Shown here piece after piece: positions 12,238 through 52,585 of a DNA stretch of 64,000 bases; position 1 is the first letter of the stretch; the number at the start of each line of letters is the position of its first letter. The notes under the pieces were generated by a model. The model saw only the letters and a list, made by a program, of their open reading frames with translations. It ran no database searches and was not told the origin of the DNA. The position numbers were made by a program, and so were the translations under genes. The DNA comes from an uncultured virus (IMG/VR IMGVR_UViG_3300042450_001700) (taxonomy: Duplodnaviria; Heunggongvirae; Uroviricota; Caudoviricetes): the IMG/VR virus record IMGVR_UViG_3300042450_001700. One strand, given 5' to 3'.

Positions 12238-12735
12238 TCAGTGTGAAAGATTGTTTGATATTTCTTCAGAACCCAACCGGCCCACCCGAAGCTTCACATT
12301 CCCATCAACCACCGGCTCAGGACACACCACCGGCTCAGCGCCCAGCCACCGGAACACCGCATCAAAACTCTCAGGATCAGACAACACTTCCTCATAGACC
12401 AACGGATACACCCTGATCCCCCGAGCAACCGCCCAAGTCAATACCCGCATCTGCGCCTGCACAATGTTCGCCTCAGCTTCCTCACGGCAAGAAGCAATAC
12501 CACGATCCACCTGCGAACTAATCGTCGCCTCAAACGACCTCAACACAAGAACAACCGCCTGCGGCCACTCCCCGCCAAAGTCAAAATCCGTCGGCCAATG
12601 CGACATCCACTTATCACCCGACGGCATCGACCAGTGCCGAGCAACCACCGCAGGATTAGCTTCCAACCAACGAGACACAAACCTCGTAGCCGACCCAGCA
12701 GGCCCGGTCACGATCACGTTCACATGGTCACTCAC
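12238..12735 (-). CDS. Sulfotransferase/P-loop-like protein
   Basis: VIVTGPAGSATRFVSRWL..NP, LVLRS...TISS and LVYEEVLSDP resemble the sulfotransferase fold; GTG overlaps the upstream stop. Confidence 0.5.
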   Translation of the reverse strand: MSDHVNVIVTGPAGSATRFVSRWLEANPAVVARHWSMPSGDKWMSHWPTDFDFGGEWPQAVVLVLRSFEATISSQVDRGIASCREEAEANIVQAQMRVLTWAVARGIRVYPLVYEEVLSDPESFDAVFRWLGAEPVVCPEPVVDGNVKLRVGRLGSEEISNNLSH

Positions 12736-13307
12736 GCAATCCACTCACCAATCCACACAGACTCAGCCCAACCCGCTTCTTGACCATACGCCATGATCTC
12801 AACCTCGGATGTCTGTCGCCAATGCACACCATCCCTGACAAGCGTACAAGCCCTGTCAGTACCAGTTTCACCGCTCACAAGCCACTCATCCAACGGTGGG
12901 TTGCAACCAGTAGGAACAGTCACAAGCAAACGCCCGCCCGGTGCAAGCAAAGACCTCAAATGTTCAATCGCCCTAACCGACCCACCCGGCTCACGAGGCT
13001 TCTCATCCCAACGAACATGCTCAACCGTTGAGATAGAAAATATCTGATCCCACGAACCAGTCACCTCAAACACATCAAGGTTCCACACACCGGCAGAATG
13101 CTCCCAGCGGTCAACGACGGCACGTTCTGGTGCTTCAGGGTAATGCGCAAGAACATTACCAAGTTCAAGTATCGACCCTTGACGATCCAACCATTGACGC
13201 ACAATCGGTATCTCAACCGCACGTTCATTCAACCGGGTGGTGTTGTACTCGAAGTCAGCGTACTCAAGTACACGACCCCAATAAGTGAATACTTCCATCC
13301 GGTTCAT
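12732..13307 (-). CDS. Class I SAM-dependent methyltransferase-like protein
   Basis: ILELGN, WDQIFSISTVEHV and LLAPGGRLLVTVP motifs. Confidence 0.7.
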   Translation of the reverse strand: MNRMEVFTYWGRVLEYADFEYNTTRLNERAVEIPIVRQWLDRQGSILELGNVLAHYPEAPERAVVDRWEHSAGVWNLDVFEVTGSWDQIFSISTVEHVRWDEKPREPGGSVRAIEHLRSLLAPGGRLLVTVPTGCNPPLDEWLVSGETGTDRACTLVRDGVHWRQTSEVEIMAYGQEAGWAESVWIGEWIA

Positions 13308-25889: not shown

Positions 25890-26729
25890 ATGAGCAAACT
25901 TGTAGGGCTATCCCCATCCAGTGTTCAGCTATGGGAACAATGCCCACGCAAGTTCAAGGAAGAAAAGATGATGGGCCGATCAGGTGGCACAGGTGAAGCC
26001 GCGCTACTCGGCACGTTCGTCCATCTCGCACTCGAACATCTCATGCAACTACCAACCGAAGAACGAGTCATCGAAACAGCCCGCATGATCGCGCGTTCCT
26101 CGTGGGAAGAATTTGCTGCATCACGAGAATGGATCGGATGGGTTTCCGAAACAGGGTTTGATGATGAGCAAGCGTTTCGTCGTCGGGGCTGGGCAAGCAT
26201 CTGCGGCTATTTCCAAATGGAGAATCCGCAACAGGTTGAGGTTGTTGCAACCGAGCGTTTCATTTCGGCAACTCTTGAAGGTGTTCCTGTCAGGGGGATT
26301 GTTGACAGGCTTGATCGTGATGTGTTCGGCAATGTTGTGATCGTTGATTACAAGACAGGCAAGGTTCCATCCCCGTGGTTCCGCGCACCGAAGATGCAAC
26401 AACTCAACATCTATGCGGCGCTCGTTGAAGAGGTTGACGGGGTGCGACCTGATGAGGGCCGGTTGTTGTTCACTTCGTTCTCGGAGACTATTGCTACGGA
26501 TGTGACTGCGGAGTCTGTGTGGTCTGCGGTTGAGGTGTTGAAGAATGCGTGGGCGGCGATTGACCGGGCGGCGAACGATGATGTGTTCCCTGCGAAGGTT
26601 GGACCGTTGTGTGGTTGGTGTCCGTTTGTTGGTGAGTGTGTTGATGGGTTGGCTGAGGTGAAGTCTCGGCGGTCTGCGGGGAAGTTGAAGAAGACTGCTC
26701 CGGCTTGGGAGTTAGCGGCGGGCGAGTGA
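25890..26729 (+). CDS. PD-(D/E)XK RecB/Cas4-like exonuclease
   Basis: LSPSS...CP, GTFVH, RGIVDRLD, IVDYKTG, QLNIY and CGWCPF...C motifs; leaderless TAGACT-N6-ATG. Confidence 0.9.
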   Translation: MSKLVGLSPSSVQLWEQCPRKFKEEKMMGRSGGTGEAALLGTFVHLALEHLMQLPTEERVIETARMIARSSWEEFAASREWIGWVSETGFDDEQAFRRRGWASICGYFQMENPQQVEVVATERFISATLEGVPVRGIVDRLDRDVFGNVVIVDYKTGKVPSPWFRAPKMQQLNIYAALVEEVDGVRPDEGRLLFTSFSETIATDVTAESVWSAVEVLKNAWAAIDRAANDDVFPAKVGPLCGWCPFVGECVDGLAEVKSRRSAGKLKKTAPAWELAAGE

Positions 26730-27807: not shown

Positions 27808-28038
27808 ATGGGAATCGAAATCGAAGTACGGAACGGAATGGTCATCGAAGTTGATGAAGACTTCAACACAGAGTCCAATGACATAACCGTATGGGTGCTG
27901 GAAGTCGAAGTATTCGACCCTCAAGCGTCACCATGCTTTTCAAGCATCACCGAATACGGTGTCTTTGAGACATCCGCTGAGGCTGAGGCTGACGCACCTG
28001 AAGATGCGAAGCTTTACGAGGCGGAGGTGACAGCGTAA
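27808..28038 (+). CDS. Acidic hypothetical protein
   Basis: Class I promoter at 27740-27768, AAGGAG SD; paralog at 48690. Confidence 0.7.
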   Translation: MGIEIEVRNGMVIEVDEDFNTESNDITVWVLEVEVFDPQASPCFSSITEYGVFETSAEAEADAPEDAKLYEAEVTA

Positions 28039-28343
28039 TGGCAAAACACGCGGCACTCCCGATGAAGCCACTGTGGGACATCGCTCGCAGCATGAGTGAT
28101 GACCCGATGTTCAACCAGCGTGACTTCGCCCGAGCAGTCAACCATTCCACACGGGCCGTGACCCGTTGGATCACGGCAGGCGAAACCCTTTCGTGGGTGT
28201 CGGCAGACGAGGCGGCTATCGCACTCGGTTTGCATCCGATCCTTGTTTGGGGCGAAGCATGGTTGAACGTACGTGGCGAGTTGACTGATCTGGAAGCCGA
28301 AGTGATTGGCGATCTGGAAACGGAAGCACTCACCGATCTATAA
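28038..28343 (+). CDS. HTH-like DNA-binding protein
   Basis: NQRDFARAVNHSTRAVTRW...ADEAAIALGLHP..VWG pattern. Confidence 0.6.
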   Translation: MAKHAALPMKPLWDIARSMSDDPMFNQRDFARAVNHSTRAVTRWITAGETLSWVSADEAAIALGLHPILVWGEAWLNVRGELTDLEAEVIGDLETEALTDL

Positions 28344-28440
28344 ACAATCTGAGTTATAGGTGGTGTGGCGCTCAATAGTGTCACACCACCTAGATACACT
28401 TATCAAACAAGCAAGTCACAACTACCAAGGAGCGAGAGCA

Positions 28441-28671
28441 ATGGCAAAGAAGAAGGATTACCCGGCGATCAGCAAAGAGCAGAGGATCGAAGTCCTCTCG
28501 GTGTACCTCACCAAGATTGAATCAGGTCTTTCCGATCTGATCGCCAAGCGTGACAAGCTTCAAGACACCCCCGAGTCGGAATGGGCGCAACGCAACGTGC
28601 GAAACGCGACAGCACACATCGAAGTGACTCGCAACGAGCTTCACGCTCTCCTCGCAGAGGTGGCAGTCTGA
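28441..28671 (+). CDS. Hypothetical coiled-coil protein
   Basis: Class II promoter at 28379-28400, AAGGAG SD. Confidence 0.65.
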   Translation: MAKKKDYPAISKEQRIEVLSVYLTKIESGLSDLIAKRDKLQDTPESEWAQRNVRNATAHIEVTRNELHALLAEVAV

Positions 28672-29105
28672 TGGGGTCAGCAAACTTCCGCACAATCAAC
28701 ACAGGCGTGAACGCAGAAGCAGCATTCGATCAAGCCGTAGCTCAGGCATACGACGAGTACGGCTACGAGGGTTACACCGGCAGCATCGCTGAGAAAGACA
28801 GTTTCATAATCGTCCACCTCCCGCTCCACGCCGAAGCAGAACTGGTTGTAGGCGCTCTGGATCTCTCACAGTGCGCAGACTCCTACTACCCGACCGACAG
28901 AGAAGAAGCCGCTGCCGCCAAAACGTTACTCAACGCATACTTCGGTGAAAGCGACGCAGACCGGCTGATCGCCACCTACCTCAACAAGTGGGGACCGGCG
29001 CTCTGCTTCAAGCTTCGCCCACCCGAAATCGTCCAATGGGGCAGATACAACACGCTCCCAACTCACCAAGATGTGTTCTTGTTCGCAGGGTACGCATCCG
29101 AATGA
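28671..29105 (+). CDS. Conserved phage hypothetical protein
   Basis: MGSANF...AF..AV..A..EYG..GYTGSIAEK...KWGPA...FAGYASE. Confidence 0.75.
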   Translation: MGSANFRTINTGVNAEAAFDQAVAQAYDEYGYEGYTGSIAEKDSFIIVHLPLHAEAELVVGALDLSQCADSYYPTDREEAAAAKTLLNAYFGESDADRLIATYLNKWGPALCFKLRPPEIVQWGRYNTLPTHQDVFLFAGYASE

Positions 29106-29461
29106 ACCCACACACACTCGCCACCGGCAAAACCCCCGACCAAGCATTCAACAAAGCAACCCGCCAACCCGGAACCCACCTCACAAAAAAAGCGGGCTAC
29201 ACACACATCCCCCTCCCACCCAAAGTCATGGCACACAAAGTCCTAGCCGCCATCCAAGACACACAACACACAAACAACCCCAACGCAGACAACCGAGACA
29301 AACGAGCAGCCCAAAAAGCCGCCCAATGGCTCCAAACCCTCCCAACACCACCCCCACCCAACACCACCATCTGCCTACAACTAACAGGCCGACCCCTCAA
29401 CCAATACATCAACCAACACGGACCCCTCCCCAAAAACCACAACCTCTACATCTTCACCTAA
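29102..29461 (+). CDS. Diverged tandem paralog of the upstream gene, extremely C/A-skewed
   Basis: TGKTPDQAFNKA aligns with TGVNAEAAFDQA; ATGA-coupled. Confidence 0.55.
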   Translation: MNPHTLATGKTPDQAFNKATRQPGTHLTKKAGYTHIPLPPKVMAHKVLAAIQDTQHTNNPNADNRDKRAAQKAAQWLQTLPTPPPPNTTICLQLTGRPLNQYINQHGPLPKNHNLYIFT

Positions 29462-29632
29462 CCCCAAACCCAAACCCCCCCGAACAAACCCCACCCCCAA
29501 AACACAGGTCAGGAGTTTCAACCCACCACCTGTAGAAACATCGACTACAACAACATTTCGGATATACACAAACCGAACCACCCGGACTCAAAAAGAACCC
29601 ACAAAAAAAGATTGGGAGTTTCAAGTTGTCAA

Positions 29633-29822
29633 CTTTTCCAAAAAGTTATCCACAGGTTTTTCCACAGAGTTATCCACAGAACACCTGTTCGACGAACATT
29701 TGTTCGGAAAAGTTGTCCACAGGTTGTCCACAGGTTGTCCACAGCTTTATCCACAGAAAAGTTTTCCACAGGTTTTCCACAGGCAAAAGTTATCCACAGT
29801 TTGTCCACAGGTTTATCCCCAA
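29633..29822 (+). repeat. DnaA-box array with LexA-like boxes (left)
   Basis: TTATCCACA x4, TTGTCCACA x4 and TTTTCCACA x3, co-oriented at ~11-12 bp spacing; GAAC-N4-GTTC at 29679 and 29694. Confidence 0.85.
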
Positions 29823-29825
29823 CCT

Positions 29826-30602
29826 TGTTCGCTGTTCTCGGCTCGTGGTCGGCGCTCGTGGTCGGCTCTCGCTCTCTTGTTCTCGGCTCGTTCTCGGCTC
29901 TCGCTCTCGCTCTCATGTGGCTCTCATGTTGTGGCAATAGGTGAGACAGTAGGCGCGCGCTATCGGCTCTCTCTGTTCGCTCTCGTTCGTGTGGTCGGCG
30001 CGCTCTCGGCTCTCTCGTTCGTGCCGCTCGTGTTCGCTCTCGGCTCGTGGTCGGCTCTCTCTGTTCGTGGTTCGTTCGTGCCGCTCTCGCTCGTTCTCTT
30101 GGCTCGTGTTCGTGTGCGGCTCGTGGTCGGCTCTCTCTGTTCGTGGTTCGTTCGTGCCGCTCTCGCTCGTTCTCTTGGCTCGTGTTCGTGTGCCGCTCGT
30201 GGTCGGCTCTCGTGTTCGTGTGGCTCGTTCGCTCGTGTGGCTCGTGTGCCGCTCGTGTGGCTCTCTCTCGGCTCTCGTGTGCCGCTCTCGTGGCCCAGCA
30301 GCGCGTGCCGCTCTCGGCTCGTGGTTCGTGTGGCTCTCGTTCGTGTTCGTTCGCTCTCGTGGCTCTCGTGGCGCTCTCGTTCGTGGTCGGCGCTCATGGC
30401 TCTCTCGTGTGTTCTCTGTTCGCTCTCGGCTCTCGCTCTCGTGTGGCGCTCTCTCGCTCGTTCTCGTGGCTCGTGGTCGGCTCTCGTTGGCTCTCGCTCG
30501 TGGTGCCGCTCTCGTTCTCTCTCGTGGCTCGTGGCTCTCGCTCATGGCACTCACCCAGCAGCTCGTGCCGCTCGTGCCGCTCGTGCCGCTCGTTCTCGTT
30601 CT
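29826..30602. repeat. Adenine-free low-complexity tract 1
   Basis: Mosaic of GCTCTC/GCTCGTG/GTTC/GCC/GGTCG units. Confidence 0.9.
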
Positions 30603-30605
30603 CCC

Positions 30606-30646
30606 CAAAAACTAGAACGAGAGCCGACCGTTTTGGTCGGCTCTCG
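30606..30646 (-). terminator. Cassette terminator
   Basis: GAGAGCCGACC-AAAAC-GGTCGGCTCTC hairpin then GTTCTAGTTTTT; repeated at ~31641-31682, 32686-32728 and 33646-33684. Confidence 0.75.
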
Positions 30647-30657
30647 TTCTCGGCTCG

Positions 30658-30984
30658 TCAGTCCTTGAATATTGCTTTTAGCTCGGCAGTGATTGCCCGC
30701 TGAAGCGCTGGAATTTCGCGCACAAGAGCGTTGTACGTTTTCGGCTCAACCGCCAAAGTGTGAGTGCCAACACCTTGAGCGTTGAGAGTGCGAACCCACT
30801 TAGGCGTTCCGGCGTATCCTTCGTCAGTTGTGATGACTTTCGTGCCGTTCTCGTTGTAACCAACGAACACCCGGCGAGGATTTCCATGTACGTTGTTTGT
30901 TGTTGTGTAGTAGCCGATCGAACGGATGTTGAGCAGTAGCTCGTGTGCGGTCATTTGGTTGGCGAGTACTTCGTGGATTGCCAT
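30658..30984 (-). CDS. Cassette gene 1, hypothetical (108 aa)
   Basis: Normal-complexity ORF between the conserved leader and terminator. Confidence 0.75.
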   Translation of the reverse strand: MAIHEVLANQMTAHELLLNIRSIGYYTTTNNVHGNPRRVFVGYNENGTKVITTDEGYAGTPKWVRTLNAQGVGTHTLAVEPKTYNALVREIPALQRAITAELKAIFKD

Positions 30985-31172
30985 GATTTTTCTCTCATTC
31001 CCGAGCGGCTCGTGCCGCTCGTGTTGTTGGTGTGACTACATTCAACCAAAGATTGGAACAGAACGCAATAGCAAAACACCAGATTCTTTTTCTGACAGCG
31101 ATTTAGCCGCTAGAACTAGGGGGTTTTGCCCCAAAAGAAATATTTTGGAATCGCTCCAAAACGGTCGTTTTG
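30985..31172 (-). promoter_or_regulatory. Conserved ~185-bp cassette upstream block (4 copies)
   Basis: Homologous to 31961-32146, 33022-33208 and 33999-34180; includes TTGCGT, GTAGTCACACCAACAACACGAG and a hairpin before GAGAG. Confidence 0.75.
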
Positions 31173-31635
31173 GCGCTCTCGGCTCATGTTGCTCTCGGCT
31201 CTCGTGGTGCCGCTCATGTTGCTCTCGTGCCGCTCTCGCTCTCGGCTCTCGCTTGCCGCTCATGGCGCTCTCGTGTGGTCGGCGCTCGTGGCTCTCGGCT
31301 CGTGGTCGGCGCTCTCACCCAGCAGCGCTCTCGCGCGCTCTCGTGGCTCGTGGTCGGCGCTCGGCTCATGGTCGGCTCGTGCCGCTCTCACCCAGCGCTC
31401 GTGTGGCGCTCGTGTGGTGCCGCTCTCGGCTCGTTCTCTCTCGTGGTCGGCTCTCGTGCCGCTCGTGCCGCTCGTGGCGCTCTCGTGGCTCGTGGTGCCG
31501 CTCTCTCGGCTCTCGGCTCGTGTGCTTGCTCTCGCTCTCTCTCGTGCCGCTCTCGGCTCGTGTGGTGCCGCTCGTGGCTCATGCCGCTCTCGGCTCTCGC
31601 CCAGTCTTGTGTGGCGCTCGTGGCGCTCTCTCGTT
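31173..31635. repeat. Adenine-free low-complexity tract 2
   Basis: Same unit vocabulary as tract 1. Confidence 0.9.
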
Positions 31636-31693
31636 GGATCCAAAAACTAGAACGAGAGCCGACCGTTTTGGTCGGCTCTCGCTCTCGCTCGTT

Positions 31694-31960
31694 CTAGCCT
31701 AGTTGATCCTCTCGTTTTGGCAGTAGTTGGAGTTCTTCCCGATCTCCGGCGAGAGCGTCACAACATTCGCACAAGTTGCGGCTGAATGATCCCGAGAACC
31801 AATCCGAAGCCGGAACCAGATCAAAATCCTTGCTTAGTTCTTCGATCCCTTTTTGGCATGCAATCGAATCGGCTTCGCTCATTCCCGAGTCATCGCCATC
31901 AGCGATCATTTGGAGGCAGTTGAGGCAAACTCGGATGGTGATGATGTCTGACAGCTTCAT
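31694..31960 (-). CDS. Cassette gene 2, acidic Zn-binding-like (88 aa)
   Basis: VCLNC...FS...CECC...GDR motif. Confidence 0.75.
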   Translation of the reverse strand: MKLSDIITIRVCLNCLQMIADGDDSGMSEADSIACQKGIEELSKDFDLVPASDWFSGSFSRNLCECCDALAGDREELQLLPKREDQLG

Positions 31961-32146
31961 TTTTTTCTCTCATTCCCGAGCGGCTCGTGCCGCTCGTGTT
32001 GTTGGTGTGACTACATCAAAGCAAACATTTTGACTATACGCAATAGCAAAATGCGAGATTCTTTTTCTGACCGGGGTTTTGCCGCTAGTTCTAGGGGTTT
32101 TCACGCCAAAAGAAATATTTTGGAATACGTCCAAAACGGACGTTTT

Positions 32147-32685
32147 GCCGCTCTCGGCTCTCTTGTGCCGCTCGTGTTCTCGTGGTTCTCGCTCTCTCGT
32201 TCTCTCGGCTCGTGTGGCGCTCGTGTGGTCGGCTCATGGCGCTCTCGCTCGTGGTTCGTCCTAGTGCCGCTCTCGTGGCTCGTGGCGCTCGTGTGTGGCT
32301 CTCTCGTGGTTCTCGTGGCGCTCTCGTGTGGCGCTCGTTCTCATGCCGCTCTCGTGGCTCTCGTGTGGCTCGTGGTTCGTGCCGCTCGTGGTTCTCGGCT
32401 CTCACCCAGCAGCGCGCTCGTGTGGCTCGTGTGGTGCCGCTCGTGTTCGTTCGTGGTTCGTGGTCGGCGCTCGTGTTCTCTGTTCGCTCTCGTGGCTCGT
32501 GTGGCGCTCTCGTGGCGCTCATGGTGCCGCTCTCGTTCGTGGTCGGCTCATGTGGCTCTCTCGTGGCTCGTGGTTGCTCGTTCGTGGTTGCTCTCGGCTC
32601 ATGGCGCTCTCGTGTTCGTTCGTGCCGCTCTCGGCTCTCTCGTGGCTCTCACCCAGCGCTCGTGGTGCCGCTCTCGGCTCGTGCC
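32147..32685. repeat. Adenine-free low-complexity tract 3
   Basis: Same unit vocabulary. Confidence 0.9.
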
Positions 32686-32736
32686 AAAAACGGCAACAAG
32701 CGCCGACCGTTTTGGTCGGCGCTCGTTGCTCGTTTT

Positions 32737-33021
32737 CTAGAACGCTTGGAACAGAATCCCGTCGCAAAATTCGACTGCAAAAGTCATATCGTTGAGAGCG
32801 TCAAGCGAGTCGAAATTTTCGCCGTAGTTCTCGTTGATCTCTTCCAAGTCTGCCGCAAACATCCATTCTTGATCGAATGCGATTGGATCGAATTCAACCC
32901 CTTGGCCTTCTTCTTCTGCCGCTTCGATAAGCTCAAACAGTGCGTAGGATGCGTTGATCGGCCAGTTGCAAAGTGTGCGCATTGTTTGGGCAAACGTGCA
33001 GGCTGTCAGTAGTTCGTACAT
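32737..33021 (-). CDS. Cassette gene 3, very acidic protein (94 aa)
   Basis: SYALFELIE...EFDPIAFDQEW...LDALNDMT; D/E-rich. Confidence 0.75.
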   Translation of the reverse strand: MYELLTACTFAQTMRTLCNWPINASYALFELIEAAEEEGQGVEFDPIAFDQEWMFAADLEEINENYGENFDSLDALNDMTFAVEFCDGILFQAF

Positions 33022-33208
33022 TTTCTTTTCTCATTTCCCGAGCAGTTGGTGCCGCTCGTGTTGTTGGTGTGACTACATCAAAGCAAAGATTTGAAAGATA
33101 CGCAATAGCAAAACACGAGATTCTTTTTTCGACCGGGGTTTTCGCCCTAGAACTAGCGGGTTTTGCACCAAAAGAAATATTTTGGAATCGCTCCAAAACG
33201 GCAGTTTT

Positions 33209-33645
33209 CGCGCTCTCGCTCGTTCTCTCGTGTTGCTCGTTCTCGGCTCTCGGCTCATGGTTCTCTCGGCTCTCGTGTGGTGCCGCTCTCGCTCTCGGCT
33301 CTCGCTCTCGGCTCGTGTGCCGCTCTCGCCCAGCAGCGCGCTCGTGTGCCGCTCTCGTGTGGTTCGTGGTCGGCTCTCGGCTCTCGCTCATGGTTGCTCT
33401 CGTGTGCCGCTCGTGTTCGTGGCAGATACCCAGCGGCGCGTGCCGCTCTCGTGGCTCGTGTTTGCTCTCGGCTCATGCCGCTCTCGTGGTTGCTCTCTCG
33501 TGGCTCTCTCGGCTCGTGGTTGCTCTCTCGCTCGTGCCGCTCATGGTCGGCTCGTGGTGCCGCTCTCGGCTCTCGTGGTCGGCTCTCGTGCCGCTCTCGT
33601 TCTCGTGGCTCTCCCAGCCGCTCGTGGCGCTCGTGTGGCGCTCGC
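33209..33645. repeat. Adenine-free low-complexity tract 4
   Basis: Same unit vocabulary. Confidence 0.9.
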
Positions 33646-33698
33646 AAAAACGAGAATGAGCGCCGACCTTTTTGGTCGGCGCTCGTGGCTCGTGTGGT

Positions 33699-33998
33699 TC
33701 AGTCGTATTCAACCTCACCCCATTGATTTGTTCGTGAATGACAGAACTCTTCAACATAGTAAGAGTTGAGATCAACGTATTTTGGTGCCGCTTCAGCCGC
33801 TTCAGCCGCTTCAGCGATTTCCATGACTAGCGCCCTAGTCGAAACTGACGGAACCGATTTGCCGCCAGCGTTTTTGGCGATTTCAGTCCACTCAGAATCG
33901 GTCAAGTACTCGGGGTTTTTGCCGATAGTGGCGATTTCTGTCGCCATCTTCTTAGCAAGCTTTGCCCGATTTGCTAGGTGTGCCGGATGTGCTTTCAT
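33699..33998 (-). CDS. Cassette gene 4, HPxHL-family copy 3
   Basis: MKAHPAHLANR...W..IA..AG...PS..T. Confidence 0.75.
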   Translation of the reverse strand: MKAHPAHLANRAKLAKKMATEIATIGKNPEYLTDSEWTEIAKNAGGKSVPSVSTRALVMEIAEAAEAAEAAPKYVDLNSYYVEEFCHSRTNQWGEVEYD

Positions 33999-34180
33999 TC
34001 TGCTCTCTCTTCCCGAGCCGCTCGGCTCGTGTTGTTGGTGTGACTACATCAAAGCAAAGATTCCACACATAAGCAATAGCAAAATGCGAGATTCTTTTTG
34101 GAACAGCGGTTTTACCCCTAGAACTAGGGGGTTTTGCACCAAAAGAAATCTTTTGGAATCAGCCCAAAACGGTCGTTTTG

Positions 34181-34528
34181 GCTCTCGGCTCGCTCTCTCA
34201 TGGTCGGCTCTCGGCTCGTGTTCTCATGGCTCTCTCATGGCGCTCTCATGGTTCTCTCTCTCTTGTGCCGCTCTCGCTCTCTCATGCCGCTCTCGTGGTC
34301 GGCTCGTGGCTCGTGGCGCTCTCTCTTGCTCTCGGCTCTCGTGTGGCGCTCTCGTGGCTCGTGTGGTTGCTCTCTGTTCTCGTGGCGCTCTCTGTTCTCT
34401 CTCGGCTCGTGTTCTCTCTCTCATGGCGCGCTCGTTCTCGTGGTCGGCTCGTGGTCGGCTCGTGGTTGCTCTCGCTCTCTCGCTCTCGGCTCTCTCATGG
34501 TCGGCTCGTGTGGCGCTCTCGGCTCATG
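34181..34528. repeat. Adenine-free low-complexity tract 5
   Basis: Same unit vocabulary. Confidence 0.9.
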
Positions 34529-34614
34529 CAAAACATCTGCCGAACTCGTGACAGAAAACCGCCACTAGCGCGCGCGGTCGATTCCAAAACGACCAACACG
34601 AAAACGCCCGCGAG

Positions 34615-34846
34615 TTATCCCCAACCACACCAACCAGACGAGCCAAAAACAGCCAAAAGTTTTCCACAGGTTTTCCACAGGTTTTCCACAACTTTTTCCA
34701 CAGAACACCCGTTCCCCAAACGAATGTTCGATCAAAGTTATCCACAAGTTATCCACAGGTTTATCCACAGAACACCTGTTCGATCCGGTTATCCCCAGAG
34801 TTATCCACAGGTTTATCCACAGGTTTATCCACAGCCTGTGGATAAC
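34615..34846 (+). repeat. DnaA-box array with LexA-like boxes (right)
   Basis: TTATCCACA x6 plus one inverted copy (34837), TTTTCCACA x4; GAAC-N4-GTTC at 34703 and 34770. Confidence 0.85.
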
Positions 34847-35068
34847 CCAGCCCAGCCCAGCCCAGCCCCAAGCGGGCGGCGGCGGGCGGGCGGCAGCGGC
34901 GGCCCAGCCAGCGCGAGTTTTCCGGGCGGCGGGCGGCGGCGGCCAGCGCGAATTTCCGGGCGGGTGGGCGGCCCAGTCCGGCCCAGTCCGGCCCCGGATA
35001 AACGGCGGCCCAGCCAGCGCGAGTTTTCTAGGGGGCGGCGGGGCGGCGGGCCAGCGCGAATTTTCTAA
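34847..35068. repeat. GC-rich repeat block
   Basis: CCCAG tandem repeats, GGGC/GGC runs and four CCAGCGCGA(G/A)TTT units. Confidence 0.8.
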
Positions 35069-35074
35069 TTCGGA

Positions 35075-35461
35075 TTACCTATAAGGCGAAAGCGTCCCCG
35101 CAGCAGGAAACCCCCGTGATAACCACCCGCAAACCAAAAGCTCAATCGACGGGCGCACAACCAGAGCCGAAACCCCGGCAGCAGCCAGATCGTCTAGCCA
35201 TTCACGTTGTTCGACGGAAAGACGACCGACTTCCCGTTTGAGTTCAAGACATGCGAAACCGAAACGCGGGTGGACGAGCGCGAGGTCGGGGAACCCTTTA
35301 GCGTCTGCGTCACCGACGAAAACGCCTGCTGAGACTTGTCGTCGTGAATCGTGGAAGTGTGCGACACGCCATCCGTATAAACGGGCGAAAGTCATTATCC
35401 GGTTTTGTAGGTCTTTCTCGGTGATCTCTCGGAATGCTTTCTCTTCATTCGTAAGTCGCAT
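35075..35461 (-). CDS. VRR-NUC domain nuclease
   Basis: TEKDLQ, GFPDL, ELK...GRLS.EQ..WL motifs. Confidence 0.85.
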   Translation of the reverse strand: MRLTNEEKAFREITEKDLQNRIMTFARLYGWRVAHFHDSRRQVSAGVFVGDADAKGFPDLALVHPRFGFACLELKREVGRLSVEQREWLDDLAAAGVSALVVRPSIELLVCGWLSRGFPAAGTLSPYR

Positions 35462-35630
35462 TGTTATCCGTTCTGAACGCGTTGAAAGCCCCGAGGAGTG
35501 TTGCGAGTCCTCTGGTTTTGCAGATACCGCTTTTCACGATTCGTGGTCCACGCCAAACAACCCATACCCACTTTCGGTTGCTTCGCCGTTTCGTATCAAA
35601 CCAAATCCGATCAGTTGATGTATCTGTCAT
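35445..35630 (-). CDS. Hypothetical small protein
   Basis: Overlapping ORF within the operon. Confidence 0.45.
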   Translation of the reverse strand: MTDTSTDRIWFDTKRRSNRKWVWVVWRGPRIVKSGICKTRGLATLLGAFNAFRTDNNATYE

Positions 35631-35976
35631 TGCGTGAACCTAACTGTTCCCATTCTTCATCTCCTTCACGAACAACTAATACTTGACCAAACAGGTCACG
35701 AATCAGTTTTGGGTTGTCTTCGATGAACCCGTTTGACCAGTTACATGCAGGGATCAGGTTATTCGGGTTGATAAGGCTTCCACCTGCTGATCGTTTACGT
35801 CGTTCGTGTAAACCTTGGATTCCTGCGCATTGAGTTCGTATTGACTCGTCTTGTAACAGCGGGCAAATCAGGCAACCTATACCTGATTTGATTAGTGATT
35901 GGATAAGAGGAACCCTTGTTTCTTTCATCAGTGTTGAACGTTTTTCAGAACGTGGTCTGAGTTTGCGACCCTTCAT
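35611..35976 (-). CDS. HNH endonuclease-like protein
   Basis: CLIC, HERRKRSAGGS...NLIPACNWSN motif. Confidence 0.7.
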   Translation of the reverse strand: MKGRKLRPRSEKRSTLMKETRVPLIQSLIKSGIGCLICPLLQDESIRTQCAGIQGLHERRKRSAGGSLINPNNLIPACNWSNGFIEDNPKLIRDLFGQVLVVREGDEEWEQLGSRNDRYIN

Positions 35977-36070
35977 TGGCGACCGTTCATTGGCGACCGT
36001 CTAGGCTTGGCGACCGCCCATTGGCGACCGCCCAAGATTGGCGACCGATACCCCCTACTGGCGACCGATA
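35976..36070 (+). repeat. Six direct repeats of (T/C)TGGCGACCG
   Basis: Copies at 35976, 35990, 36007, 36021, 36038 and 36058. Confidence 0.85.
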
Positions 36071-36088
36071 CCGGTACAGCACATCTGC

Positions 36089-36316
36089 TCATTCGGCAGC
36101 GTCTTCCTCGTAGGCTAATAAGAGTATTTCTGATACCTGAACGGCAGTGAACGACACATTCATTACCCCACCAACTTTGCCCATCAGTTGCCCTTCGACC
36201 CCGTAAAGATTCGTTTGATTCAACGCAAGGATAACGCCATGCCCTTCGTTCTCTGCGTTTAGCAATGCCTCTTCAATCGTGTCAGGCGCTAACTTGAATT
36301 TGTTCTTCACGACCAA
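36089..36316 (-). CDS. Hypothetical protein
   Basis: AAGGAGG SD. Confidence 0.6.
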   Translation of the reverse strand: MVVKNKFKLAPDTIEEALLNAENEGHGVILALNQTNLYGVEGQLMGKVGGVMNVSFTAVQVSEILLLAYEEDAAE

Positions 36317-36368
36317 CCTCCTTGTTGTAGGAGATGCTACCTGTGGGGTTAGACCCGAATATGTCTAT

Positions 36369-36635
36369 ATGGGCAGTTATGGTTTACGGATGGATGAAGA
36401 ATCGTTTGACTACCCTGAAGACCCTTATCAGCTTGATGAGGTAGGTATAGGGACGGTTACGTCTTTAGAGGATGACGGGGTTGGAACCTACTTGTCTGTG
36501 TTGATTTCTGCGCATAACTCTTATGAGGGAGGTGCGTTCCACTTTGTTGTATCTCCTGAAGACGCGTTGAAGGTCGCCGCTTTGATTCTTGACTCTGTTG
36601 TGCTTATAAAGGCTTCTCTGACTGAGACTGAATAA
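36369..36635 (+). CDS. Acidic hypothetical protein (start 36369 or 36390)
   Basis: 3' part of tracked ORF 36279..36635. Confidence 0.55.
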   Translation: MGSYGLRMDEESFDYPEDPYQLDEVGIGTVTSLEDDGVGTYLSVLISAHNSYEGGAFHFVVSPEDALKVAALILDSVVLIKASLTETE

Positions 36636-36637
36636 GC

Positions 36638-36902
36638 GGCTTGGTCCAGTCCCGTCACGGCTGGGCGAAGCCGGTATCGGGTTTCAGTAAATGCGAAAGG
36701 ACCGGAAGTCTGTGCTTCAGTGCTTCGCTCCTGCGGAGCTTCTCTGTCGCTCACTTCTCCGGTCCTTTGTAGCTTGAGCTTCTCTATCCTCGTTCCTACG
36801 GAACTTCAGTGCTTCGCTCAGTTGCTTTGTAGCTAGTGGCTAGGCCGTCCGTTCCCGGTTTCATTCCCGGACTTGACCGCTTTGCGCAGGTACTCGCTAC
36901 CC
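36638..36902 (-). ncRNA. Structured ncRNA candidate F (~265 nt)
   Basis: Class I promoter TTGCGC-N17-TACGGT at 36908-36936; closing stem GGTC-A-AGTCC/GGACT-G-GACC; duplicated internal motifs. Confidence 0.65.
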
Positions 36903-37033
36903 CCATTACCGTATCAGGGTTTACTACAGTGCGCAAGTCAATAACGAAACAATCTCAGATTTCTTTTTGACCACCATCGGGCCACCACCACCAGTTTCCT
37001 GTTTGCGTCCATAGAGAATGTTATTGTTGAAGT

Positions 37034-37420
37034 ATGGAATCAGAAACAGTACAACCAATGAAGCAACGCAAGTCAGGCCGTCCCCTCAAAACAGACGAAC
37101 CACTCAAGACCTACTCGTTCAGTCTGAGCGAAAACCAGATCGCACTTCTTGACGGTTGGGCTAAAGCGAAGGGCGAGTCGCGATCCGCAGTGTTGCGTTC
37201 ACTCGTTATGCGTTTGGAAGCAGCGCCGGTGGTTGAGCCTAAGCCGCTTCAACTGAACCCGGTTGAAGTGCAGCCTGTAGCAGATGCGCCTCGCCCGCCG
37301 AGCGACATCGCTGTTGAAGCAGCAGTAGCGGCTGTTGAGTACGATGCGGCAGTTGAGCCTCCGGTTGAACTGACTGTTGCTCAACGCATCGCAGCAGCTC
37401 TTGCATCTCTTGATGCGTAG
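37034..37420 (+). CDS. Ribbon-helix-helix (CopG-like) DNA-binding protein
   Basis: GRP...YSFSLS....LLD.WA...GESRSAVLR pattern; leaderless. Confidence 0.75.
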   Translation: MESETVQPMKQRKSGRPLKTDEPLKTYSFSLSENQIALLDGWAKAKGESRSAVLRSLVMRLEAAPVVEPKPLQLNPVEVQPVADAPRPPSDIAVEAAVAAVEYDAAVEPPVELTVAQRIAAALASLDA

Positions 37421-37752: not shown

Positions 37753-38529
37753 TTACAACCCCAAAACCGTGTACTCAACCACACACTGACAATTCACTGA
37801 CTCAGCAGCAGGCAAAGCAATATCCCCCGGATACTCAGCAAAGAACCCACCAACAACAAACAACTCACCCGGACCCACCACCTGCCCATTAGCAGCAGCA
37901 TGAGACTCCCTACTATCCACCAACTGGCAAATCCAAACCTTCGACCCCTCAACACCAACAGCGATCAACTCATCAGGAATATCAACATCGTCCAACTCCG
38001 CCAACAAATCAAAAGCAGAACCAGCCGCAGCGTTCAACCCGCTGTTCGTTTCAGTAACAGTCATAACCCGTGCCACCCCCTGAGACAACGGTCCAGACAC
38101 ACCACCATCAAACAACCCCAGCCGGTCTAACAGCCAACCCGGAGCCTGACCAGATGCCTCCGTTGAAGCAACCGCAACCCGCCCATCAACAGTTGCGCCA
38201 ACCTTGTAAATCACAACCATCCGTGCAGCCAACATCTCCTCAGCCGCACTCTCCACAACATTAGAACGCAACAACCACACCAACCCCAAAGCAATCGCAG
38301 CATCACGAGCAATCTCCCGATACATCCGATCCAAAACAGGCTTCACTTCAGAATCAACAGCCTCAACCCACCAGCCCTGATCCCACAAGTCCTCATACAT
38401 CCCATCAGACTTCGTGACTCTCGCCCTCAACTTCGCTCTCACATCATCAAACGCAAAGCCAATAGCACGCCCAACCCTATAATTCCACAACGCACGGTCA
38501 GCATCAGATAACAGATACGACCCGGCCAT
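37753..38529 (-). CDS. MuF-like minor head protein
   Basis: TETN, KVW...SRESH...NGQ...F.VGG...YPGD...ESVNCQC motifs. Confidence 0.8.
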   Translation of the reverse strand: MAGSYLLSDADRALWNYRVGRAIGFAFDDVRAKLRARVTKSDGMYEDLWDQGWWVEAVDSEVKPVLDRMYREIARDAAIALGLVWLLRSNVVESAAEEMLAARMVVIYKVGATVDGRVAVASTEASGQAPGWLLDRLGLFDGGVSGPLSQGVARVMTVTETNSGLNAAAGSAFDLLAELDDVDIPDELIAVGVEGSKVWICQLVDSRESHAAANGQVVGPGELFVVGGFFAEYPGDIALPAAESVNCQCVVEYTVLGL

Positions 38530-42103: not shown

Positions 42104-42466
42104 TCAGATTTCTTTCTCCACATAAACCACTCTGCCGTCAATGATGACGATGCCTTCTGGCAATATCGCATGATCCAGTATCGCCCCACGCAGATCAGCT
42201 CCGAATAGGCTTGCTCCGAATAGGTGTGCGTTCGTGAGGTTCGCTCTGCGTAGGTCGGCTCTGCGTAGGTCGGCGTTATGCAGGTTTGCGCAGATGAGGT
42301 CGGCTCCGATGAGGTTCGATCCGAATAGGTCGGCGTTTGTCAGGTTCGCTCCGAACAGAACGGCTCCCATTAGGTTTGTGTCGGATAGGTCTGCCCCGTA
42401 GAGGTTCACTCCGGTTAGGTCGGCTCGTTCCATGTTGCGGACTTCGTGTCCGATGATTGTGGTCAT
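42104..42466 (-). CDS. Pentapeptide repeat protein
   Basis: A(D/N)Lxx repeats throughout. Confidence 0.9.
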   Translation of the reverse strand: MTTIIGHEVRNMERADLTGVNLYGADLSDTNLMGAVLFGANLTNADLFGSNLIGADLICANLHNADLRRADLRRANLTNAHLFGASLFGADLRGAILDHAILPEGIVIIDGRVVYVEKEI

Positions 42467-42555
42467 CCTTCGACCCATATTCTCCAGCAGAGCATTCCTA
42501 CGCTTGCGATGTTTCCTACGATTGCGATTGCTATGTGAATCTCGGTCTGTGTCAT
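42463..42555 (-). CDS. Small single-TM peptide (30 aa, leaderless)
   Basis: TTGATT-N16-TATACT-N6-ATG; MTQTEIHIAIAIVGNIASVGMLCWRIWVEG. Confidence 0.6.
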   Translation of the reverse strand: MTQTEIHIAIAIVGNIASVGMLCWRIWVEG

Positions 42556-49688: not shown

Positions 49689-49838
49689 TGGGTGTTGAAC
49701 GGTTGGCTCGTGAGATCGTTGCGAACTCGGATGGCAAGGTGTCGTGGGAGGAAGCTTTGCGTGAAGCGTGGTGGACCACAATGGCAGGCTGGGGCGAGAT
49801 CGAAAACCCTGAACCTGTAGTTGAGGTTGAGGGTTAGG

Positions 49839-50570
49839 GTGAACCACACGACTCATAACATCGACTGCATCAACCTGCCATCACTGGGACTTGAACCAGT
49901 CCAACTTGTTTACGCTGACCCACCGTTCAACACAGGCAGAGACTTCGGAGAATGGGCCGACAACCACTGGGCCACAACGAGCGATTACATCCGGTGGCTT
50001 ACCCCACGCCTTGAAGCGTGTTGGGAGCAGCTTTCGCCTAACGGCAATCTGGTCTTGCATTTGGATTGGCGGACAGCGCACAGAGCGAAGATCGCTTTGG
50101 ACGACATCGCTGGGGAGCAGAACTTCTTGAATGAGATTGTGTGGGCGTACCGTTCTGGCGGTGCGTCGAAGCGGCATCTGTCTAGGAAGCATGACACGTT
50201 GTTGTGGTATGCGAAGGGTGATGGTTACACGTTCAATCCGCAGCGTGTGCCGTATGCGCCGGGGACTGATGTGAGCAGGCCGGGGTTTCATCCTGATGGG
50301 AAGTTGATGACTGATGTGTGGGACATCTCTTTCATTTCGACTAGCTCGCATGAGCGCACTGGGTGGCCTACGCAGAAGCCGGTGACGTTGTTGTCTCGTG
50401 TGGTTGAGTTGTTTAGCAATCGGGGTGATGTTGTGTTGGACCCGTTTTGTGGTTCTGGTACGACTGGGGTTGCGGCGAAGCGGTTGGGGCGTGGTTCGGT
50501 GTTGTTGGATGTGAACCCGGATGCGACTGCGTTGGCGGGGGAGCGTGTTTGGGGTGAAAAAGAAATCTGA
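49839..50570 (+). CDS. N6-adenine/N4-cytosine DNA methyltransferase (beta class)
   Basis: DPPF, PTQKP and VLDPFCGSGTT motifs. Confidence 0.9.
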   Translation: MNHTTHNIDCINLPSLGLEPVQLVYADPPFNTGRDFGEWADNHWATTSDYIRWLTPRLEACWEQLSPNGNLVLHLDWRTAHRAKIALDDIAGEQNFLNEIVWAYRSGGASKRHLSRKHDTLLWYAKGDGYTFNPQRVPYAPGTDVSRPGFHPDGKLMTDVWDISFISTSSHERTGWPTQKPVTLLSRVVELFSNRGDVVLDPFCGSGTTGVAAKRLGRGSVLLDVNPDATALAGERVWGEKEI

Positions 50571-51614: not shown

Positions 51615-52112
51615 CTACTCAAGTTCGGTCGAATCAGCCTCAACAGCACGACGACGAGACTCCAACTTCATAGCCAAACTCTCAATCGCAGACGAGTCAA
51701 CACCTAACGTAACCCGCATATCAACAGGGCCACCGTCAGCGCCAGTAACTTCAATCTTCGATGCGTCCCTACGCCCCCACCGTTCAGGGTTCTTGCGTTC
51801 ACGAATCCATGCGGCGGCTTGCCATTGTCCGTCTTGGGCGGATCTGCGGATGAGGGCTATGTCTGCGACTTCTGCGTCGGCTTCTGCTTTTTCTATTGCG
51901 GCTAAGAATGCTAGGTATTCTGGTGGTGCGTCGGGGTTTTCGGCTTGTTTCAACCAGTTTCGGAGTGTTTGGTTGCTTATGCCTGCGTAGCGGCAGGCTA
52001 CTTCTCGGTAGTTGCCTGCTTGGAGTGCGGTGATTATTTTGTCGCAGCGTTCTTTGTTGAACTTGGTTGGTCTGCCGGGGTGGTCGTATGAGGTTATAGG
52101 GGGCGTTGGCAT
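51615..52112 (-). CDS. terS: Terminase small subunit-like protein
   Basis: GRPTKF...ACRYAGIS..T..NW, WQAAAW..ER..PE.WGR and EVTGADGGP motifs. Confidence 0.75.
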   Translation of the reverse strand: MPTPPITSYDHPGRPTKFNKERCDKIITALQAGNYREVACRYAGISNQTLRNWLKQAENPDAPPEYLAFLAAIEKAEADAEVADIALIRRSAQDGQWQAAAWIRERKNPERWGRRDASKIEVTGADGGPVDMRVTLGVDSSAIESLAMKLESRRRAVEADSTELE

Positions 52113-52585
52113 GTGGGGCAGTTTCCTTGTCCGTGTTCTGTGTTGTCTTTTTCTGGTGGTTGGAAGGCGGCGGGGTTGTCGGTGGTTTGGAGGAGGGCTT
52201 GGAGGTCTTCGGGTGTGAAGCTTGTTGCTTCTAGGAGTTGGGTGTTGTTGTTTGAGATGTTGGTGAGCATTGTTGTGAGTTCTTTGTTGTCCCAGCGGGA
52301 GAGGTCGGAGGTGTGGTTATCGGCTATTGCGAATGCTTGTGCTTCTTCTAGGGTGAGGTTGACTGTGATGGCGGCGATGTGGTCCCAGCCGAGTTGGACG
52401 GCGGCGGCGTGGGTGTGGTTCCCTGCGAGGATTTGTCCGTCTTGGTTTACGACTAACGGTTTGAGTTGCCCGAATTGGGTGAGGCTTGCTTTGATTGCGT
52501 TGACGTTGCCGCGGCGGGGGTTGTGGTGTAGGGGTGTGAGGGTTTCGATTGGGACGAGTAGTTCTTGGAGGTCGTCTGCAATCAT
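52094..52585 (-). CDS. ParB/Srx N-terminal domain protein
   Basis: NPRRG, SL..FGQ.KP, ILAGNHT..AA and ADN motifs. Confidence 0.85.
   Translation of the reverse strand: MIADDLQELLVPIETLTPLHHNPRRGNVNAIKASLTQFGQLKPLVVNQDGQILAGNHTHAAAVQLGWDHIAAITVNLTLEEAQAFAIADNHTSDLSRWDNKELTTMLTNISNNNTQLLEATSFTPEDLQALLQTTDNPAAFQPPEKDNTEHGQGNCPTCQRPL

Follow-up and report, generated by a model that had tools for sequence, protein, structure and literature searches.

An island of four small genes, interspersed with three-letter DNA tracts and flanked by DnaA-box arrays, in an uncultured tailed phage

Why would a tailed phage carry, between its small genes, hundreds of bases of DNA in which one strand is almost devoid of one nucleotide? 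The question is raised by an island at positions 29620-35068 of a stretch of 64,000 nucleotides (nt) from the uncultured virus IMGVR_UViG_3300042450_001700 (IMG/VR; Caudoviricetes), all of which was analysed and which is termed the window below. The island consists of four minus-strand genes that encode mutually unrelated proteins of 88-108 amino acids (aa), each with its own upstream block and intrinsic terminator, of five tracts whose strands make use of essentially three letters, and of two arrays of DnaA boxes, one at either end. The interpretation we prefer, though only tentatively, is that the island is an insulated array of single-gene expression units, in which the tracts are selected signal-free spacers and the DnaA/LexA-box arrays form the boundaries.

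The island and its three-letter tracts

Read along the minus strand, the island begins with the right DnaA-box array (34655-34849) and a linker (34530-34654), whose weak terminator-like hairpin (34555-34536, 6 pairs) faces transcription from the right and stands just before tract T5 (34194-34529). Four units of the order block, gene, terminator and tract follow. Unit 4 comprises block 4 (33999-34193), gene 4 (33699-33998, 99 aa), its terminator (33658-33684, an 11-pair stem) and T4 (33223-33644), and unit 3 comprises block 3 (33022-33222), gene 3 (32737-33021, 94 aa), its terminator (32693-32729) and T3 (32161-32683). Unit 2 is made up of block 2 (31961-32160), gene 2 (31694-31960, 88 aa), its terminator (31649-31685) and T2 (31186-31640), and unit 1 of block 1 (30985-31185), gene 1 (30658-30984, 108 aa), its terminator (30614-30650, a 16-pair stem with a T-run) and T1 (29821-30603), which at 783 bp is the longest tract and abuts the left DnaA-box array (29620-29820). 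Linker, blocks, genes, terminators and tracts are all assigned to the minus strand, the two arrays to the plus strand. Between the right array and the stop of a VRR-NUC gene lies a GC-rich repeat (34846-35068), which is composed of (CCCAG)x4.6 and about five copies of a 35-37-nt unit with GCGCTGGC(TGGG). The island as a whole marks the convergence of a replication-gene operon running leftward and an operon running rightward. A preliminary description of the same DNA had reported a module of A-poor tract, terminator, small gene and conserved upstream block that is repeated four times, with a fifth tract in addition, DnaA-box arrays on both sides and a GC-rich repeat on the right, and all of these elements were recovered. 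The same is true for its contrast between conserved flanks and unrelated cargo, as the blocks are 75-86% identical and blastp among the four cargo proteins at E<=10 yields self-matches only.

In a first parse the tracts were delimited as T1 29821-30603, T2 31170-31640, T3 32150-32683, T4 33211-33644 and T5 34183-34529 (347-783 bp each, 2569 bases together). Within these bounds only 62 of the 2569 plus-strand bases are A, and 26 of the 62 belong to the word CATG, as do all 8 plus-strand A's of T5. Nowhere else in the window do 100-nt windows hold 3 or fewer A. The sense-strand alphabet of the tracts is A, C and G, and it is invariably the sense strand of the cargo that is free of T. This strand is 66.5% purine, the GC content of the tracts is 65%, and homodinucleotides are avoided (observed/expected ratios of 0.33 for AA and 0.22 for GG). 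It can be parsed into approximately 206 units of uniform polarity, 6-17 nt long, that start with C and end with GAG. The commonest units are CCGAGAG (24) and CGAGAG (16), and the dominant heptamers of the tracts are GCTCTCG (83) and GCTCGTG (64).

What the tracts lack was counted on both strands within slightly trimmed bounds (2519 bp in all), in comparison with the rest of the window. The -10-like pattern TANNNT is present once (0.40 per kb), compared to 8.19 per kb elsewhere; Shine-Dalgarno-like words (GGAG, GAGG or AGGA) are found twice (0.79 per kb versus 19.0 per kb), and so are runs of four A/T (0.79 per kb versus 41.6 per kb). Stop codons are reduced from 70.0 to 14.3 per kb, and steps from A/T to A/T account for 4.9% instead of 19.8%. 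As A and T do not share a strand, these signals are nearly absent from both strands of the tracts.

The tracts have a mosaic structure of short tandem duplications (periods of 6-89 bp), among them a recent 76-bp x2.6 duplication in T1. Within one genome the tracts resemble each other at ~66-72%, and long identical stretches between them were not seen. We detected no helical-phase periodicity of their motifs (spectral power 3.1 or less) and no RNA structure signal in T2 (sense strand, z = -1.97; antisense strand, z = -0.27), and the only two matches in Rfam are far below the gathering score. A coding function was rejected because the lengths of most tract indels are not divisible by 3 and mismatches fall on all three codon phases, without the preference for one of them that coding DNA would show. 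Rejected, too, was an origin of the tracts as hypermutated copies of the cassettes, since collapsing T to C, A or G leaves matches of only 19-61 nt. Their likeness to the cassettes is confined to the T-free 5' arms of the untranslated-region (UTR) hairpins and the terminator hairpins, which provide the top matches.

A separate observation concerns the few sense-strand T's of the tracts. Nearly all of those outside CATG lie in the motif GC(GC)(TGC)TGGG(T/C/A)GAG, of which there are 10 copies in T1-T4 and 0 in T5, all in the same direction (for example at 30547-30565, 31314-31330, 32400-32415, 32648-32660, 33327-33340 and 33610-33620). One copy is located ~30-45 nt past each of the four gene terminators, and the related GCGCTGGCTGGG / (GCTGG)n is part of the GC-rich repeat at 34846-35068.

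Upstream of each gene is a copy of a 199-nt block (four copies, 75-86% identical to the reference copy). The block starts with two CCAAAA-N6-TTTTGG palindromes; there are 8 of these in the window, all within blocks, where 0.22 would be expected. It contains a 25-nt core, ATGTAGTCACACCAACAACACGAGC, which all 9 block copies, drawn from three lineages, share without change, and a 20-nt core motif is found 4 times in the window (0.01 expected) and never outside the blocks. At its end, just before a purine-rich ribosome-binding stretch, is a 7-pair 5'-UTR hairpin, one pair of which covaries among the nine copies (GC in four, CG in four and GU in one). Judged by position and conservation, the blocks would be promoters, and the invariant 25-nt core could be a non-canonical one. 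The predicted terminators are four minus-strand hairpins of 11-16 pairs with T-runs, directly 3' of the genes. Each of the five tracts comes directly after a terminator if the linker hairpin is included, and four of the five stand before a block.

At the two ends of the island, the perfect DnaA box TTDTCCACA is strongly concentrated. It is present 22 times in the window compared to 2.08 expected, a number that 0 of 100 shuffles reached, and all 22 copies are within the two arrays, 11 at 29646-29809 and 11 at 34660-34845, spaced by 11-12 bp, with the last box on the right inverted. The left array also has degenerate boxes and two LexA-like palindromes, AGAACACCTGTTCG at 29678 and CGAACATTTGTTCG at 29693, and two further palindromes are found at 34717 and 34769 in the right array. 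Altogether, 4 of the 9 LexA-like palindromes of the window (at most one mismatch), including the sole perfect one, are inside the arrays. They were assigned by a consensus of Gram-positive type. From their sequence, the arrays are predicted to bind DnaA and perhaps LexA.

Two other repeats lie near the arrays. At 35960-36070, ~1 kb to the right of the island and beside the replication genes, six copies of TTGGCGACCG with 14-17-nt spacing are situated just upstream of a 121-aa open reading frame (ORF; 35611-35976) and resemble iterons or operators. Just left of the left array, at 29460-29510, the minus strand has a cluster of G-runs (GGGGG-T-GGGG-N7-GGGGGGG-TTT-GGG-TTT-GGGG), which together with the G-rich repeats on the plus strand right of the right array gives the island mirror-like G-rich flanks.

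Conservation and distribution of the island

The same order of elements is found in two IMG/VR contigs from other assemblies, at 99.2-99.7% identity, and exact pieces of the island are present in Logan contigs of three lake-water runs. In one of these (X1), the island pieces have depths of 21-30 and the flanks of 21.7 and 31.1. As independent assemblies agree, the pieces are exact and the depth is like that of the flanks, the island is real and not an assembly artefact, a point that the preliminary description had proposed to verify. Two-fold terminal redundancy was not seen in depth over the island, which was taken from contigs and not from raw reads. One Logan contig each of runs X6 and X7 has a joint, 29667->34816, that drops 5148 bases and with them the whole island. 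Its short side has 23 letters, it may be an island-less recombinant between the homologous arrays or a repeat artefact, and we do not rely on it.

Selection was analysed by comparison with L012, an IMG/VR contig that is ~85% identical to the window and has the same island with orthologous cargo genes, T1 being cut by the end of the contig. In MAFFT alignments T2 and T3 are 96.0% (T3 over aligned columns), T4 93.8% and T5 91.7% identical to their counterparts. For the other parts of the island, identities are 66-89.5% (genes), 87-98.5% (blocks) and 89-100% (terminators). For the four cargo genes and the neighbouring VRR-NUC gene, the synonymous p-distance is 0.29-0.50 and the ratio of nonsynonymous to synonymous rates (dN/dS) is 0.04-0.45. 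Thus, the tracts are 92-96% identical while the synonymous sites of the cargo differ by 29-50%, which shows that the tracts are under purifying selection. The low T content is likewise not a regional mutation bias, a possibility we rejected since T makes up 17-25% of the third codon positions on the sense strand of the four cargo genes compared to 2.5% of the tracts on the same strand. In both lineages the T content of the tracts is 2.5-3.6%. What is free to vary is length: T3 of L012 has ~219 extra bases in six insertions, and tract indels between the lineages measure 1, 2, 3, 9, 11, 12, 20, 25, 33, 38 and 116 nt. Such tolerance of indels and tandem duplications is expected of redundant spacers.

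A model that knows only the rules of the tracts (no T, no AA, no GG) allows 37% of substitutions and predicts a divergence of ~11-19%. Substitutions without T comprise 46 transversions and 21 transitions in pairwise alignments, and the MAFFT spectrum leans the same way. An excess of transversions is expected if the rules forbid most transitions, and it can lower the expected divergence further.

The island is restricted to one lineage of phages, within which two or three close lineages could be compared. Searches with a block 25-mer and with a 20-mer pattern returned the same 5 IMG/VR contigs both times. A tract 16-mer was found in 41 loci, and depleted tracts of >200 nt only in those of the same 5 contigs; among the remaining loci, L044 shows one A-poor window of 100 nt. 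The 5 contigs, which share tract vocabulary and blocks, represent two lineages, and a 21-mer search in JGI metagenomes added one short contig of a third lineage, near L012. In 185,579 species genomes a tract 20-mer has 5 chance matches only. Among 18 loci with relatives of the VRR-NUC gene (40-81% identity) none has a long depleted tract and none a DnaA array, the maximum being 2 boxes per locus (downstream sequence of at least 1.9 kb is available for 16 of the 18). In one relative (L085) the helicase is 91.5% and the initiator 71% identical, but the VRR-NUC gene is followed by ordinary small genes and then structural genes. As the island is absent from the next relatives and confined to few lineages, we conclude that it is a recent, lineage-specific construction.

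Two side observations relate to this distribution. In two relatives (L090, 7536-9240, and L087, 2558-4483), a PD-(D/E)XK nuclease gene and the VRR-NUC gene are adjacent on one strand. In the window, 8.3 kb separate the two (25890-26729 and 35075-35461), which lie on opposite strands and enclose the island. This arrangement suggests an inversion or insertion breakpoint at the island. Moreover, a soil oligo-dT RNA-seq run (X24) has contigs ~90-98% identical, with indels, to 31134-31500, 32231-32726, 34706-34838 and 36513-36820. They touch parts of T2-T4, the right array and the region at 36.5 kb, not the cargo genes. A relative may therefore live in soil; coverage is low, the library may contain DNA, and we draw nothing from these contigs.

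A proposed insulated array and competing explanations

How might such an island work? In our preferred reading, four unrelated small proteins would each be made from a transcription unit of their own, leading from the block through the gene to a strong terminator. Transcription would start just upstream of the CACACCAACAAC leader and end at the four hairpins, leaving the tracts silent. The tracts would serve as signal-free, hard-to-melt insulators, almost without -10 hexamers, ribosome-binding words, start or stop codons and A/T runs, that would prevent interference among four promoters, five terminators and the two nucleoprotein arrays at the ends, and they may confine supercoil-driven melting to the AT-rich blocks. 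The DnaA arrays with their LexA-like boxes would act as boundaries, roadblocks or sinks by binding DnaA of the host and perhaps its LexA. On this reading, the cargo may have early or host-directed roles. More broadly, it is conceivable, and we put it forward tentatively, that the tracts are a new class of selected non-coding phage element: hundreds of bases with three letters per strand, built of one-directional C...GAG units, that function through base exclusion itself and that, together with the paired DnaA/LexA-box arrays, constitute a domain manipulating host replication and SOS proteins. Possible roles of such tracts are an all-purpose insulator, a coat-forming array or, for a host system targeting T or A in single-stranded DNA or RNA, a one-strand-specific substrate or decoy.

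Several results weigh against insulation as the explanation. Lengths of 350-780 bp, in total 4% of the phage genome, are not obviously needed for this purpose, and downstream of T1 there is no promoter that could be insulated. A consensus scan detected no sigma-70-type promoter in any block, which is why we speak of promoter activity of the blocks conditionally. Mismatches that involve T make up 22 of the 93 between the lineages, mostly CpG to TpG changes that yield CATG, so that T is selected against but not impossible. Furthermore, the observed tract divergence of 4-8% falls short of what the rule-only model predicts, and in (C/T)GAG the GAG core has mismatches of 1.9-2.5% compared to 5.7% elsewhere, which makes it 2-3 times more conserved. 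Both the low divergence and the conserved core hint at sequence-specific recognition rather than at purely negative design.

These last results lead to the main rival of the insulated array, which we regard as possible though not probable, namely that the units of the tracts (C...GAG|C, 6-17 nt), densely packed and all in one direction, are short sites for a DNA-binding protein of the phage or its host, with which they would form a coat, a centromere-like scaffold or a sink alongside the DnaA/LexA sinks. The single polarity of the ~206 units, the two heptamers that dominate the tracts (GCTCTCG and GCTCGTG, 83 and 64 copies), the extra conservation of GAG and the divergence under the rule-only expectation all fit this proposal, and so does the freely varying copy number, as in iteron or centromere arrays. 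A nearby ORF (37034-37420) has a weak ribbon-helix-helix match (E=0.0095). What does not fit is the variable unit length, the lack of helical phasing (power 3.1 or less) and the conservation of the connectors between the cores, and no candidate binding protein was identified. Since the tract 20-mer is absent from the species genomes save for the 5 chance matches, the vocabulary is also not a copy of a host site array. Less likely in our view, indeed unlikely, is a role of the tracts as RNA, either as U-free read-through RNA (forming R-loops or resisting U-dependent RNases) or as A-free antisense non-coding RNA from divergent block promoters. It is in line with the constant position of the T-free, 66.5% purine strand on the sense side of the cargo and with the soil RNA-seq contigs, which match T2 and T3 at ~90-95% in a library that may hold DNA. 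A strong intrinsic terminator precedes each tract on the sense strand, though, -10-like elements are lacking on both strands, and neither a structure signal (z = -1.97, -0.27) nor an Rfam family was found. Equally unlikely is that the island is, or contains, a DnaA-dependent origin zone, whose arrays recruit host DnaA while transcription of the cassettes assists in opening or priming the DNA. With 11 boxes each at one-turn spacing, the two arrays are oriC-like, a DnaB-like helicase, an O-like initiator and the six iterons are encoded just to the right, and the strongest amino/keto skew switch (+0.61 to -0.33, after a rise from 28.0 kb) is exactly at the left array. But the negative side of this switch is produced by the A-poor tracts themselves, comparable saw-teeth without DnaA boxes exist elsewhere, e.g. 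at 51.6 kb, and relatives with replication genes at 71-91% identity have no arrays. Moreover, the phage has its own initiator and iterons, and the tracts adjoining the arrays, with 65% GC and hardly any A/T runs, are the opposite of an unwinding element.

The preliminary description had proposed a different model, that of a terminal, first-injected region for host takeover or anti-defence, in which cassettes are exchanged by recombination at their conserved flanks. Such a region would be similar to PeSL cassettes (see below), its DnaA boxes acting like the injection stop of T5. Conserved flanks around unrelated orphan cargo would be expected under this model, gene 2 is fast-evolving (dN/dS 0.45) and gene 3 strongly acidic, and there are precedents in the shuffling PeSL cassettes of T4-type phages (PMC2839356) and in the T5 DnaA boxes beside the pre-early genes (bioRxiv 10.1101/866236). 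Exchange of cargo is, however, not what the comparison revealed: L012 has the same four genes in the same order despite a dS of 0.4-0.8, and another contig (L099) has the same gene-2 unit, the comparison covering 2-3 lineages. In addition, the tracts of one genome are only ~66-72% alike, with no long identical stretches seen, contig depth is not doubled, and neither homologues of T5 A1, A2 or dmp nor any known anti-defence family were found. We consider the model doubtful and would rank it slightly behind the RNA and origin proposals. By far the least credible is that the tracts are functionless slippage expansions of T-free seeds (the 5' arms of the two hairpins) or an assembly artefact. This view, which we disfavour, could appeal to the tandem-duplication mosaics (periods of 6-89 bp), to the exclusive likeness of the tracts to the 5' arms of UTR and terminator hairpins and to the tendency of assemblies to break within the island. 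It is contradicted by the 92-96% identity between lineages at 29-50% synonymous-site difference, by the steady T content of 2.5-3.6% in both and by the identical pieces, at normal depth, from independent assemblies and runs.

Should the insulated array or another function of the tracts be confirmed, they would be an example of selection acting on an alphabet rule instead of a motif, a source of ready-made natural insulator parts, and a pointer to an unstudied phage way of organising or protecting early genes. The paired 11-box DnaA arrays with LexA-like boxes would be a testable case of DNA sites, not proteins, engaging host regulators of replication and SOS.

Cargo proteins, known systems and the phage

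dN/dS values of 0.04-0.45 against the relative support that the four cargo genes are real. None of the four proteins matches a family of known function in Pfam, PHROG or NCBIfam, and all but gene 3 are orphans. The product of gene 1 is basic (isoelectric point (pI) 9.05) and 96% identical in aa to its L012 orthologue (dN/dS 0.04); outside its lineages it has one homologue, 72% identical, on a 22-kb ENA contig. Its predicted structure, with a mean confidence score (pLDDT) of 55.5, is too poor for a structure search, and the ESM Atlas gave no usable matches for genes 1 and 4. The gene 2 product has 6 Cys and a pI of 4.1 and, with 53.5% aa identity to L012 and a dN/dS of 0.45, evolves fast. Gene 4 (pI 5.4, 93% aa identity, dN/dS 0.08) has no homologue beyond its own lineages.

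Gene 3 (pI 4.05, 89% aa identity to L012) is better connected. An exhaustive search at E<=0.001 gave 16 matches, which are the orthologue of the L012 lineage, 14 distant relatives of 92-106 aa and one protein of 1868 aa. Gene 3 and the 15 small matches (16 sequences) each match phrog_9974, a family of small acidic phage proteins without assigned function. The AlphaFold2 model (mean pLDDT 81.5) has structural matches to uncharacterised viral proteins only; no PDB match was obtained at E<=0.001 (best VIA Z 5.2), and a profile search of the PDB sequences and of Pfam gave nothing below E=0.26 and no match, respectively. With regard to DNA-mimic anti-restriction proteins of the ArdA/Ocr type, we also compared the model with ArdA (2w82). 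Foldseek E=5, a VIA Z of 4.1 and a root-mean-square deviation of 4.0 over 81 residues are within noise, and an ArdA-like fold is not supported. For small orphan proteins that would be expressed separately, a host-directed role is plausible, which makes the four candidates for such functions in freshwater bacteria.

Individual features of the island have precedents, namely tandem promoter-gene-terminator cassettes in T4-type phages and DnaA boxes near the early genes of T5, and we found none for the long conserved stretches that lack a base. In T4-type phages, PeSL (promoter-early stem-loop) cassettes are promoter + stem-loop units that shuffle small ORFs (Arbiol et al., 2010, PMC2839356). They resemble the island in that small, mostly orphan genes follow one another in the same orientation, each enclosed by a repeated regulatory motif and a stem-loop terminator. 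They differ in that promoter and stem-loop form one short composite motif, whereas here a selected tract of 350-780 bp lies between them. Moreover, a sigma-70 consensus was not found in the blocks, the host here is probably Gram-positive, and replacement of cargo was not observed among the 2-3 lineages. PeSL cassettes are reportedly (work of Comeau et al. from 2014) located in hyperplastic regions of T4-type phages.

The first-step-transfer DNA of T5 has 8 DnaA boxes, which lie beside the pre-early genes in a repeat region that is untranslated and conserved (Davison, 2020, bioRxiv 10.1101/866236), and the role of DnaA in T5 is itself a hypothesis. T5 and the island have in common a large, repeat-rich untranslated region that adjoins small early-type genes, DnaA boxes clustered at short distances, and a conservation among relatives that is higher in the non-coding repeats than in nearby ORFs. 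In T5, however, the 8 boxes are paired inside inverted repeats, compared to 2 x 11 boxes in direct orientation here, base-excluded tracts are not described, and the region lies within a terminal repeat, while contig depth here gives no sign of terminal redundancy. A1, A2 or dmp homologues are not among the cargo.

Other systems are more distant. The Bacillus phage SPO1 has, in its terminal redundancy, a host-takeover module of many small genes, arranged in short operons that each possess a strong early promoter and a terminator. The clustered small-gene units are similar, but the module is not known to have DnaA arrays or three-letter spacers. Chromosomal DnaA-box clusters of B. subtilis and datA-type sites are high-affinity boxes outside the origin that could bind or titrate the initiator; here, such boxes are in a phage, paired around a gene island and interleaved with LexA-like palindromes. 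U-less, A-less and G-less cassettes, in which one strand is without one nucleotide over hundreds of bases, are man-made laboratory templates to stall RNA polymerase, whereas the tracts are natural and part of phage DNA. Integron cassettes are promoter-less, unlike the units of the island with their own conserved block and terminator. Of the 80 ORFs of the window that were scanned, none matched an integrase family; attC sites were not part of this search. In full-text searches of the literature, passages of PMC7302621 included and supplements apart, we found no description of natural base-excluding tracts or of such DnaA arrays. Like stretches were also not found outside the carrier contigs in 2.9 million viral contigs, in the 185,579 species genomes (searched with one 20-mer) or in Rfam.

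The window has the gene content of a tailed phage. Family searches identified a major head protein, a portal, large and small terminase and minor tail proteins, as well as SSB, the PD-(D/E)XK nuclease, VRR-NUC, a DnaB-like helicase, a lambda-O-like initiator, an M15 peptidase and an Rpf-like transglycosylase domain; tRNA genes were not found in the 64-kb window. A close relative is absent among 50,697 deposited phages, and blastn of 29000-36200 against these records gave two chance Microviridae matches only. Of the 24 public runs listed for the window, 23 are lake-water metagenomes from 2020-2024, in which 63-98% of the words sampled from 28000-37000 are present. An actinobacterial host is suggested by the Rpf-like domain, by the families of minor tail proteins and by LexA-like boxes of Gram-positive type.

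Elsewhere in the window, three consecutive genes of glycosyltransferase families (131-2258, minus strand) are beside the gene for the 664-aa major head protein, and a stand-alone ParB-N-like protein (52094-52585, minus strand) adjoins the small terminase. A 124-aa pentapeptide-repeat protein is encoded at 42104-42478 (minus strand), a separate N6/N4 methylase at 49821-50570 (plus strand), and at 53254-54876 (plus strand) a 540-aa protein that matches both DNA-methylase (PF01555) and PLP-dependent-enzyme (PALP) families. The pentapeptide-repeat protein and the methylase genes suggest DNA modification and a possible interaction with gyrase. Finally, individual genes of the window have an extreme and opposite amino/keto bias at third codon positions that is unrelated to gene orientation. 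A/C make up 97% of third positions at 29228-29461 (plus strand; T 0%, G 3%) and 94% in the ParB-like gene, and G/T make up 88% at 37753-38529 (minus strand), with 12238-12744 (minus strand) also among the extremes. G/T-ending genes of the same kind are present in relatives (L092). The (A+C)-(G+T) profile is a saw-tooth with bipolar switches at ~29.6 kb (+0.61 -> -0.33) and ~51.6 kb (+0.36 -> -0.49), each of which fades over 1.5-3 kb.

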